Assembly: GCA_963816145.1 (NCBI GenBank)
Contig: CAWFJP010000029.1
Coordinates: 430,723-494,722 of the forward strand
Source of the DNA: an uncultured delta proteobacterium
GTDB taxonomy: Bacteria > Desulfobacterota > Binatia > UBA9968
Length of the DNA stretch: 64,000 nt
Direction: 5' to 3'
This document shows positions 3,589 to 3,921 of this stretch, piece after piece (position 1 is the stretch's first letter; every line of letters begins with the position of its first letter). The notes beneath the pieces are model-generated. The model did no database searches and was not told the origin of the DNA. It saw only the letters and a program-made list of their open reading frames with translations. A program made the translations under genes and the position numbers.

Positions 3589-3615
3589 CATTAAATAAAG
3601 TCCTGGAGGACAACA

Positions 3616-3921
3616 ATGGCGAACAAGTGGGACGAACGTAAGAAAGCGCAAGAGGACGAGTACTTCGTCAAGAAGGAACGCGAACAGCTGGCGAAATTAA
3701 AGGCTAAACAGGAAGCGGAAGCCAAAGAGACGGCGAATAAAGTCGTCCACATGCGCTGTCCCAAATGCGGCGAGCCGCTAAAGGCGCGGAGCTTCCAGAA
3801 GATCGAGATCGATCAGTGCACCGGTTGCAATGGCATCTGGCTCGATGCCGGTGAACTTGAGCAAGTCGCCGAAAAGGATGAGGGCAGTTGGCTCGGCAGG
3901 TTCTGGCAGAAAAACGGCTGA
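3616..3921 (+). CDS. zf-TFIIB-type zinc-ribbon protein with an IF1-like N-terminal helix
   Basis: CPKC...IDQCTGCNGIWLDAGELE zinc ribbon; GGAGG RBS; N-terminus WDERKKAQEDEYFVKKEREQLAKLK. Confidence 0.85.
   Translation: MANKWDERKKAQEDEYFVKKEREQLAKLKAKQEAEAKETANKVVHMRCPKCGEPLKARSFQKIEIDQCTGCNGIWLDAGELEQVAEKDEGSWLGRFWQKNG

Follow-up and report, generated by a model that had tools for sequence, protein, structure and literature searches.

The gene at positions 3616 to 3921 (plus strand) of the window, that is, of the whole 64,000-nucleotide stretch of DNA that was analysed, raises the question of whether a bacterial protein can carry a counterpart of the inhibitory helix of the mitochondrial ATPase inhibitor IF1 and, if so, whether this protein may act on the F1-ATPase of its own cell. 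The first-pass annotation of the sequence had proposed an IF1-like ATP-synthase inhibitor, possibly gated by metal or redox state.

The gene and its product

The open reading frame starts with ATG, 6 nt downstream of a ribosome-binding site (GGAGG, 3605 to 3609, plus strand) read in the sequence, and its translation gives a protein of 101 amino acids, in which an IF1-like N-terminal helix, a Zn_ribbon_TFIIB domain and an amphipathic tail, all encoded on the plus strand, follow one another. Residues 5 to 29, as quoted in the first-pass annotation, match this translation exactly. In the AlphaFold2 model (mean pLDDT 81.3, with residues 11 to 40 at 84 to 91), one long alpha-helix is predicted for residues 2 to 44 (3616 to 3747); residues 4 to 30 (3625 to 3705) can be aligned through Pfam IATP and the IF1 chains of the PDB to residues 21 to 47 of the long inhibitory helix of bovine IF1, and residues 31 to 46 constitute a variable linker. 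The region behind the helix is modelled as beta hairpins and two short helices, with no coiled coil. It includes the Zn_ribbon_TFIIB domain (PF13453; residues 47 to 86; 3754 to 3873), matched with an E value of 5.1e-17 and 61.4 bits, where the cut-off is 22, and whose two CxxC knuckles (CPKC...CTGC) supply C48, C51, C68 and C71. The short amphipathic C-terminal tail (residues 90 to 99, GSWLGRFWQK; 3883 to 3912) combines aromatic and basic residues, and its residues 92 to 99 are predicted to be helical.

In one soil RNA library (run X1), a 268-base contig, which may also derive from DNA carried over into the library, spans positions 3620 to 3887 with 3 differences. In three other RNA runs cover was found on the neighbouring genes only, a lack of cover being uninformative in such data.

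Likeness to the inhibitory helix of IF1

The comparison made in the first-pass annotation relied on a bovine IF1 sequence (residues 22 to 46), which the phmmer output showed to be identical to residues 22 to 46 of PDB chain 2v7q_J. We could reproduce the ungapped alignment with its 11 identities over 25 positions (R25, A28, E30, Y33, F34, E40, Q41, L42, A43, L45 and K46), as well as the tryptophan, at position 5 of the window protein, that stands opposite F22 of IF1. The identities are not evenly spread along the helix: at the group 1 binding residues of IF1 defined by Bason and coworkers in 2011 (F22, A28, E30, Y33, F34, Q41, L42 and L45; PMC3041923), the window protein is identical in 7 out of 8 cases, compared to 4 out of the 17 other positions (post-hoc Fisher p 0.004).

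The PDB chains of IF1 are matched by the single window sequence as well as by family profiles. Two profiles, A5 and A8, comprising the N-terminal helix only, were searched against 177,635 PDB sequences, and the best E values in these searches were 1.6e-5 and 2.6e-5. With A5, 16 matches were retrieved at E values of up to 0.035, the next, unrelated one standing at 0.77; with A8, 16 matches were retrieved at up to 0.023, and the next, again unrelated, stood at 0.5. All matches with E values below 0.05 are exclusively ATPase-inhibitor or IF1 chains, including those from bovine and yeast, together with Drosophila PSK, an IF1-family peptide (PMC6266733), and the plant protein At2g27730, which appears as 'Atpase inhibitor protein' (PMC4921834). 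In these searches the helix matched IF1 far better than other charged helices, so that the objection foreseen in the first-pass annotation, namely a resemblance of the kind that any shuffled charged helix would give, fails.

The search against Pfam IATP (PF04568), which had been suggested as a check, gave a divided answer, since residues 3 to 38 align to model positions 50 to 84 with an E value of 7.5e-5, but the score of 23.6 bits lies under the gathering cut-off of 25 bits. None of the 43 family members considered exceeds the 23.6 bits of the window protein, and 17 of them match IATP at an E value of 0.01 or less; a precomputed PF04568 label is carried by 4 of 120 listed close relatives. In the reverse direction, a six-frame scan of the organism's own 7.8-Mb genome with IATP returned the window gene and two paralogues as its top three matches (best score, 23.8 bits). 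Furthermore, all five places found at E values below 0.02 in 61 genomes of the phylum are family members, and a match at an E value of 0.05 or less occurred in none of 14 control genomes.

Thus, by the statistics of the tools used, the resemblance noted in the first-pass annotation is genuine, specific and beyond chance, and at the level of sequence the N-terminal helix resembles the inhibitory region of IF1 both specifically and family-wide. Differences from mature bovine IF1 are nevertheless present. The first residue of the window protein corresponds to residue 18 of IF1, and the N-terminal 17 residues are thereby missing, including residues 13 to 17; in bovine IF1, the stretch from 13 to 20 contacts gamma and slows dissociation. 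Moreover, the replacement of F22 with tryptophan makes bovine IF1 weaker (PMC3041923), and the family does not maintain the equivalent of Q41.

Conservation of the helix across the family

An alignment of 43 members was examined, the rows of which were chosen by eye for the N-terminal extension, so that the counts given here are conditional on that choice. The most conserved positions of the helix are E13 (43/43), F17 (40/43), Y16 (tyrosine in 35 members and phenylalanine in 7) and E23 (36/43), which are the equivalents of E30, F34, Y33 and E40 of IF1, residues whose mutations fall in the class of strong effects described in 2011 by Bason and coworkers (PMC3041923). The equivalent of A28 is kept in 27 of the 43 members. 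Of the two motifs whose retention had been put forward as a check, E-x-x-Y-F is kept, whereas Q-L-x-x-L is kept in part, with glutamine at position 24 in only 4 of 43 members, leucine, isoleucine or valine at position 25 in 38, and leucine or methionine at position 28 in 31. Hydrophobic residues are maintained in the family at the equivalents of IF1 positions 22, 42 and 45; a sub-group with the motif KPS-x-N-E-D-E-Y-F has no equivalents of F22, R25 and A28.

In a comparison of 78 orthologues, conservation is highest over the first 30 residues of the protein (3.60 bits per position), followed by the zinc ribbon (3.27) and the linker (2.01). Such conservation on a solvent-exposed single helix is what would be expected for a partner-binding face.

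Zinc ribbon, tail and domain architecture

Zn_ribbon_TFIIB (PF13453) is matched by 40 of the 43 family members. The nearest solved structure to the ribbon is 8yoz, ZifS/TTHA0897 of Thermus thermophilus (phmmer E value 6e-5, profile E value 4.6e-11, Foldseek E value 8e-4), and the Foldseek search against the PDB returned nothing besides it at E values of 0.001 or less. The first knuckle reads CPKD or CPRD, with aspartate for the second cysteine, in P0116, P0132 and the G038 copy, and the last cysteine pair is missing in P0065; it follows that not every member needs the full cysteine tetrad. Tails resembling GSWLGRFWQK were found in most members. Since such a tail resembles membrane-targeting helices, it may bind the membrane.

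Among the best 150 PF13453-type representatives, 97 are longer than 135 amino acids, many of them with 4 to 6 matched stretches, and the helix motif occurs in 5 of these 97. Tandem two-unit forms are represented by P0018, P0019, P0068 and P0072. Searches for longer proteins gave no case in which the N-terminal helix is fused to another domain, which is weak evidence given the kind of search.

Other identities were considered and set aside. The PADLOC and PHROGs matches that could have indicated a defence-system or phage protein among the four paralogues of the genome are weak (E values from 8e-4 to 5e-3) and concern families without known function, and one match to a 'transcriptional regulator' phrog (E value 0.0027) extends over the ribbon region. 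The zinc domain of MqsA was retrieved by Foldseek at E values of 0.06 to 0.3, too weak for an MqsA-type antitoxin, and the DksA-like identity suggested by the JGI names of some members does not agree with the model, which has one long helix and no coiled-coil hairpin. No NCBIfam match came near any cut-off, and a search of the named clusters of the ESM Atlas with residues 1 to 45 gave no usable match.

Distribution, gene neighbourhood and F1-ATPase of the organism

Named metagenome-assembled genomes (MAGs) and isolates contributed 80 loci with orthologues of 42 to 93% identity. The carriers of the family are Binatia-like bacteria, Desulfuromonadales, Syntrophobacteraceae, Acidobacteriota, Verrucomicrobiota and Chloroflexota MAGs, and among the family records listed alphaproteobacteria are absent. 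Cultured carriers are Malonomonas rubra DSM 5091 and Desulfuromusa kysingii DSM 7343. The occurrence in the phylum is patchy (11 genomes out of 201); F1 alpha and beta are present in nearly all of the 61 phylum genomes sampled.

No atp genes lie within 6 kb on either side in the 80 genome loci, nor were any found at 80 metagenome loci, many of which are short. The neighbours in the relatives of the window are leuCD, a methyltransferase and a liv-type transporter; a riboflavin synthase gene is adjacent in 47 of 80 sub-family-2 loci and in G038. Across the loci compared, synteny is lineage-specific only. In the organism's own genome, which has four paralogues, one of them lies 52 nt downstream of ftsH, and the atp loci are on contigs other than that of the window. 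A separate open reading frame downstream of the beta gene was taken as epsilon by position alone.

In the organism's own F1, the residues corresponding to the IF1 contacts named in PMC3041923 are present, with numbering offsets of 7 in beta and 8 in alpha inferred from motifs: I383, L384, V397, R401 and D443 of beta correspond to bovine I390, L391, V404, R408 and D450, and E391, A394 and F395 of alpha to E399, A402 and F403. Position 467 of beta is an alanine, the same as bovine A474, a residue called critical for the susceptibility to IF1 (PMC10949317), and K464 is found where the bovine subunit carries D471. A complex prediction with beta residues 78 to 469, alpha residues 95 to 502 and residues 1 to 46 of the window protein, all entered as alignments, scored 0.20/0.19 against a mark of 0.32, for one alpha/beta pair and without controls, a result that weighs on neither side of the question of binding.

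Comparison with known inhibitors

Like IF1 (PF04568; PDB 2v7q), the window protein has a length of about 100 amino acids and an N-terminal inhibitory-type segment followed by a different module, and both are encoded away from the ATP synthase genes. The two share a helix of about 27 residues; IF1 acts at the alphaDP/betaDP interface of F1 to inhibit ATP hydrolysis. However, different from IF1, the window protein is bacterial, has no presequence and carries a zinc ribbon and an amphipathic tail in the place of the C-terminal coiled coil.

The recognised bacterial inhibitors named in the first-pass annotation, epsilon and the alphaproteobacterial zeta, agree with those of a 2022 review (PMC9317440). 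Zeta (DUF1476), called an IF1 analogue (PMC9317440; PMC10469736), embodies the same concept: its inhibitory helix is N-terminal and sits on a globular anchor domain of its own, the place of which is taken by a zinc ribbon in the window protein. The 17 Pfam families retrieved for the window protein at E values of up to 10 do not include DUF1476, and the 43 members have no match to it at E values of 0.01 or less; the filters of HMMER remove many weak matches. The C-terminal domain of epsilon is likewise a helical inhibitor of hydrolysis by F1, located between alpha, beta and gamma (PMC9317440). Epsilon, however, belongs to the rotor and has its gene in the atp operon, and the window protein has no sequence likeness to it. 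ZifS (8yoz) shares the zinc-ribbon domain, but its ribbon starts from residues 4 to 6, and hence it has no N-terminal IF1-like helix.

Possible mechanism and competing readings

We tentatively favour, at somewhat less than an even chance, an IF1-like inhibitor of ATP hydrolysis by F1, with the zinc ribbon as its anchor, perhaps aided by a tail that binds the membrane. The same proposal of the first-pass annotation is sustained by the likeness of the helix and by the conservation of the matching positions E13, Y16, F17 and E23, and is weakened by a Q-L-x-x-L motif that is mostly devoid of its glutamine. We infer binding to F1, inhibition of hydrolysis and the roles of ribbon and tail, as follows. 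The gene product would be a small cytoplasmic regulator, whose conserved helix (residues about 4 to 30) would act in the manner of its counterpart in mitochondrial IF1, entering a catalytic alpha/beta interface of the cell's own F1 against the C-terminal domain of beta and, once inserted, stopping rotation during ATP hydrolysis. E13 would pair with R401 of beta, Y16 and F17 would pack on helix 2 of beta, and L25 and L28 on its C-terminal helices. The zinc ribbon would take the place of the IF1 coiled coil as an anchoring or oligomerizing module, and the amphipathic tail may keep the protein at the membrane beside the enzyme. The likeness to IF1 may derive from common descent or from convergence.

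The helix, IF1-related or convergent, could also bind some other conserved partner, such as a different ATPase or a membrane complex, the protein then being an adaptor or regulator and not an inhibitor of F1. The lack of atp linkage in 160 loci, conserved neighbours that vary by lineage and the paralogue close behind ftsH agree with such a role, and a patchy occurrence together with four paralogues would suit a regulator in an accessory role, acting on a target less widespread than F1. However, the top conserved residues and their spacing are those that provide the beta-binding energy of IF1, which would be an odd coincidence on a different surface, and no fusion points to an alternative partner. 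We regard this role as rather doubtful. A likeness without function, in which a charged amphipathic helix would serve folding or self-association, e.g., as an antiparallel dimer, appears improbable. It is true that the similarity covers about 25 to 35 residues of a K/E-rich helix, for which HMMER E values may be optimistic, that the IATP scores lie under the curated cut-off of Pfam and that the tandem forms suggest units which may normally pair. Yet only IF1-type proteins were retrieved at E values below 0.05 by two profiles from 177,635 PDB sequences, among which charged coiled coils abound, with a more than 20-fold gap in E value before the first unrelated match, and the reverse IATP search singles out the family in whole genomes. 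In addition, the helix is straight in the model and separates Y16 and F17 from the ribbon by some 30 residues, which makes intrachain packing unlikely.

The proposed metal or redox gating has in its favour the four cysteines of the window protein, which form a zinc-ribbon pattern, and the redox sensitivity that zinc sites made of cysteines can show. It is nonetheless very unlikely that the ribbon makes the inhibitor switchable, and this part of the first-pass annotation found no support. The members with CPKD or CPRD knuckles, along with P0065, speak against a conserved metal switch, and the ribbon is of the ordinary PF13453 kind, found in 4 to 6 copies in unrelated architectures too.

Implications

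The 2022 review states that BLAST finds no IF1 in prokaryotes save for two matches that are likely contaminants or transfers, and bases its evolutionary scenario on this absence (PMC9317440). A published account of a family combining a zinc ribbon with an IF1 helix was not found in the literature on bacterial IF1 homologues, PF13453 and ZifS, and the literature searched returned no paper on ZifS or PF13453.

In a broader reading, which we consider possible but on the unlikely side, the family would be the prokaryotic counterpart, and possibly the evolutionary source, of IF1, and a third class of F1Fo inhibitor beside epsilon and zeta, in which the zinc ribbon carries the helix and the tail attaches the protein to the membrane, providing one-way control of hydrolysis in Binatia, Desulfuromonadales, Acidobacteriota and others. 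As cultured carriers exist, the idea is directly testable. IF1 is regarded as a eukaryotic invention, and a bacterial family with its beta-binding residues would reopen the question of its origin. If the proposed function is true, the family would also offer natural helices already suited to bacterial F1, the fitting of helices to which is a stated goal (PMC10949317), and would add an IF1-like brake to the known kinds of ATP synthase regulators in bacteria.

Architecture of the zinc-ribbon protein

The ORF at 3616..3921 on the + strand, whose ATG start is preceded by GGAGG 6 nt upstream, encodes by direct translation a protein of 101 aa. The Pfam scan matched residues 47 to 86 with Zn_ribbon_TFIIB (61.4 bits, cut-off 22), and the protein is a member of that family; no NCBIfam family came near its cut-off. 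In the AlphaFold2 model (single chain, family alignment A1 as input, mean pLDDT 81.3, pTM 0.48), residues 2 to 44 form one unbroken helix, the ribbon strands occupy residues 54 to 60 and 63 to 68, and short helices are found at 78 to 87 and 92 to 99. The sole Foldseek match to the model at E<=0.001 was 8yoz (ZifS, TTHA0897, of Thermus thermophilus), which has the zinc ribbon in common with the window protein but does not contain the N-terminal helix. The C-terminal tail GSWLGRFWQK (window 3883-3912) is short, amphipathic, aromatic, and basic; a similar stretch occurs in most members of the family alignments A1 and A6, and the tail Trp is invariant in all 9 rows of A6. The tail looks like the membrane-targeting helices of peripheral membrane proteins, and a membrane location of the family proteins would follow from this resemblance.

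Relationship of the N-terminal helix to IF1

The first-pass annotation had set residues 5 to 29 against residues 22 to 46 of bovine IF1, the mitochondrial ATPase inhibitor. Both strings proved exact, the former letter for letter in the translation and the latter in PDB chain 2v7q_J as printed by HMMER, and the ungapped alignment does contain 11 identities in 25 positions. The second-best Pfam family was IATP (residues 3 to 38 against model positions 50 to 84, E 7.5e-5), with a score of 23.6 bits, just below the 25-bit cut-off of Pfam; the protein was not filed under IATP because its score lies under the curated cut-off and its C-terminal architecture is not that of the family. When the protein was searched by phmmer against the PDB set (177,635 distinct sequences, also used for the profile searches), IF1 chains appeared at E 0.013 to 0.1, next after the zinc-ribbon protein 8yoz.

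Two profiles of the N-terminal helix, to which the zinc ribbon contributes nothing, were built from DNA references: A5 (19 sequences, 36 positions), which misses sub-family 2 (for example, the copy of genome G038), and A8 (28 sequences, 44 positions), which includes both sub-families. A5 gave 19 PDB matches at E<=10, 16 of which (E 1.6e-5 to 0.035) were all ATPase inhibitor/IF1 chains, bovine and yeast included, Drosophila PSK, or plant At2g27730; the remaining three were unrelated proteins at E 0.77 to 1.7. With A8, 20 matches were obtained, of which 16 IF1-type chains (E 2.6e-5 to 0.023) were followed by NDUFB9 (0.5 and 0.56), eIF2B-alpha (0.74), and one further IF1 (0.81). PSK is described in a passage of PMC6266733 as a mitochondrial peptide of the ATPase inhibitor family, and a table row of PMC4921834 enters At2g27730 as 'Atpase inhibitor protein'. 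Charged coiled coils are abundant in the PDB, yet none scored with A5 or A8, which provides an empirical control for a generic charged helix as the source of the likeness.

In the opposite direction, Pfam IATP found 4 places at E<=10 in the six-frame translation of the window's own genome (7.8 Mb), the best three being the window gene and two paralogues (E 3.5e-4, 7.4e-4, and 0.015). Over 61 genomes of the phylum, likewise translated in six frames, 8 places were found at E<=0.05; all 5 at E<0.02 were family members (three in the window's own genome, one each in G049 and G038), and the other three had E 0.036 to 0.039. None of the 14 control genomes had an IATP match at E<=0.05. In the own genome, A5 recovered exactly the four paralogues, with E values from 1e-16 to 4e-12; no other place scored better than E 0.53. 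In our judgement, the sequence relationship of the family N terminus to IF1 is real, being specific, reciprocal, and family-wide.

Composition of the family and conservation of the helix

The full scan of 1.84 billion database representatives returned 8133 matches at E<=1e-3, of which 820 reach E<=1e-10; most are to the zinc ribbon. Among the best 150 representatives, 97 exceed 135 aa in length; many of these have 4 to 6 matched stretches, and only 5 of the 97 contain the helix motif. The 43 rows of A1 comprise the window protein, three paralogues, and 39 of the 53 short matches, selected for a motif-bearing N-terminal extension. The 14 left out are ten fragments or proteins lacking the extension (P0058, P0085, P0105, P0108, P0113, P0119, P0120, P0135, P0146, and P0147) and four whose extension has no motif (P0001, P0004, P0012, and P0107).

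The conservation counts in A1 are conditional on this choice of rows, made partly by the feature itself: with an offset of +17 to IF1 numbering, E13 (IF1 E30) is Glu in 43/43 rows, F17 (F34) is Phe in 40/43, Y16 (Y33) is Tyr in 35 and Phe in 7, and E23 (E40) is Glu in 36/43, these being the four helix positions with the highest information content. As stated in parts of Bason et al. 2011 (PMC3041923), mutation of IF1 E30, F34, Y33, or E40 strongly affects binding, E30 is salt-bridged to R408 of beta-DP, and Y33 and F34 are accommodated by helices 2 and 6 of beta-DP and the V404/S405/R408 pocket. Among the other equivalents, A28 (A11) is Ala in 27/43 rows, F22 is Trp, Leu, Met, or Phe in 34, L42 is Leu, Ile, or Val in 38, L45 is Leu or Met in 31, and Q41 is Gln in 4 and Leu in 26. 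Of the motifs singled out at first pass, E-x-x-Y-F is retained in the homologues of A1, whereas Q-L-x-x-L keeps its Leu residues in kind and loses the Gln. Of the 8 'group 1' residues, the window protein shares 7 with IF1, against 4 shared among the remaining 17 aligned positions (Fisher p 0.004, post hoc), and group 1 positions are more informative than the others (Mann-Whitney p 0.04, post hoc). Across 78 sub-family 1 orthologues (the window and 77 of 80 related loci, three truncated loci being dropped), residues 1 to 30 are the most conserved segment, with 3.60 bits per position, followed by the zinc ribbon (3.27), the tail (2.71), and the linker 31 to 46 (2.01).

Sub-family 1 has the window-type N terminus M-x-x-x-W-D-E-R-K-K-A. 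Proteins of sub-family 2 have about 8 more residues and a start of the D-E-K-D-R-F/L-G-D-K-L-R type, and their core K-A-E-E-D-R-Y-F is still closer to IF1. Carriers are MAGs recorded as Candidatus Binatia, 'uncultured delta proteobacterium', Syntrophobacter(aceae), Thermodesulfobacteriota, Desulfuromonadales, Blastocatellia/Pyrinomonadaceae, Verrucomicrobiia, Chloroflexota, and Eisenbacteria, and two isolates, Malonomonas rubra DSM 5091 and Desulfuromusa kysingii DSM 7343; Binatia records are the closest to the window's organism (79 to 93% identity for the window protein). In P0116, P0132, the G038 copy (L241:1098-1418), and several metagenome loci, the first zinc knuckle reads CPKD or CPRD rather than CPKC, and P0065 lacks the second cysteine pair, so that zinc binding may not be universal in the family. 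Since the cysteine tetrad is incomplete in several members, the metal or redox gating proposed at first pass finds no support.

P0018, P0019, P0068, and P0072 are tandem proteins of about 200 to 220 aa, with helix and ribbon twice and an E-D-x-Y-F motif usually degraded in the second unit; they have the look of a covalently joined dimer in which a single helix is active. At G000:C5:184263-184589 (L005, L006) of the window's own genome, a single 116-aa open frame contains two adjacent zinc-ribbon matches that cover only query residues 42 to 88, which indicates a protein with two ribbons and no IF1-like helix.

Genomic context, distribution, and expression

The window gene lies downstream of leuC- and leuD-type aconitase-family genes and a dienelactone hydrolase gene and upstream of a small methyltransferase gene and a branched-chain-type ABC transporter, an order common to 45 to 47 of 81 sequences (80 related loci plus the window), mostly from close relatives. 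No ATP synthase genes occurred within +-6 kb in the 80 related loci, nor in the 80 sub-family 2 metagenome loci, which are often short and total 321 kb. In sub-family 2, riboflavin synthase is directly downstream on the same strand in 47 of the 80 metagenome loci (L161-L240) and in G038 (L241:1098-2034), where it was confirmed as Lum_binding. A convergent UbiB/ABC1-type-kinase-like gene, judged by eye, is next in 15 of these 80 loci. One paralogue of the window gene begins 52 nt 3' of ftsH (AAA and Peptidase_M41) on the same strand (L004:79-1812, G000:C31 ~290439-292172); no ftsH was found in the 80 sub-family 2 metagenome loci. At the window edge, a 79-aa ORF (3-239, - strand) starts with MKYEWDKTKAADNLAKHDVSF and looks like a BrnT/DUF497-type toxin of a toxin-antitoxin pair.

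Within the genus, 16 of 18 other genomes carry 1 to 4 copies (15 of 17 without the unpublished G065), and A5 found none in 12 genomes of two sister families. In the A8 census, the family is present in 11 of the 201 phylum genomes, among them each of the other 5 genomes of the same class and 4 of 5 of family f7. In one soil metatranscriptome run (X1), a contig of 268 bases covers window 3620-3887 with three differences (3801, 3802, and 3804), a weak hint that the gene is expressed. Stretches almost identical to parts of the adjacent hydrolase and methyltransferase genes occur in three other soil RNA runs.

The putative F1 target and alternative roles

The window's own genome has two F-type alpha/beta pairs. 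At the canonical locus (G000:C17:174477-180480), the run of alpha, gamma, and beta is preceded by two b-like ORFs and a delta-like one and followed by a presumed epsilon, alpha and beta being assigned via PF00006 and sequence motifs, and gamma and the other ORFs by position and size only. In the second locus (G000:C1:123489-130457), beta lies upstream of ORFs resembling a, b, alpha, and gamma, an order that we take to be that of N-ATPase operons; a second, roughly 50%-identical beta occurs in about 5 of the 61 sampled genomes of the phylum. With bovine offsets (beta 7, alpha 8) inferred from the DELSEED-region and AAFAQF motifs and published residue identities rather than by alignment with the bovine chains, the C17 beta presents the published IF1 contacts I383, L384, V397, R401, and D443, none of which varies among 30 beta sequences from the phylum, and the C17 alpha presents E391, A394, and F395. 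Passages of Hatasaki et al. 2024 (PMC10949317) name five beta positions as deciding whether a bacterial F1 accepts bovine IF1 and stress the Ala at bovine A474. Four of these are occupied in the own beta by A398 (bovine S405), K464 (D471), M466 (L473), and A467 (A474), and the chain stops short of the H477 position; it thus shares the stressed Ala but not the acidic residue.

The simplest reading would be that the conserved helix residues recognise the surface that IF1 recognises, a target that is itself highly conserved. We tentatively give a little less than an even chance to the proposal of the first-pass annotation that the protein inhibits F1 hydrolysis as IF1 does, a zinc ribbon replacing the coiled coil. 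Against it stand the absence of genomic linkage to atp genes, the patchy distribution of a family whose putative target, F1, is universal, the four paralogues in one genome, the lack in sub-family 1 of the gamma-contacting N-terminal stretch, and the lack in one sub-group of the F22, R25, and A28 equivalents. We give a lower but still appreciable chance to the IF1-like helix binding a different partner, and a somewhat lower one again to a structural or self-association role of the helix.

Database relatives are named 'zf-TFIIB domain-containing protein', with a precomputed PF04568 label on 4 of the 120 relatives listed, and our literature search found no published account of the family, PF13453, or ZifS. 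According to passages of a 2022 review (PMC9317440), BLAST detected no IF1 in prokaryotes except two hits ascribed to transfer from hosts, and zeta, a recognised bacterial F1 inhibitor, and IF1 are judged analogues. Judging from its sequence, the N terminus of this family looks as if it works as the IF1 inhibitory helix does, which would make it a new variation on a known type of regulator.
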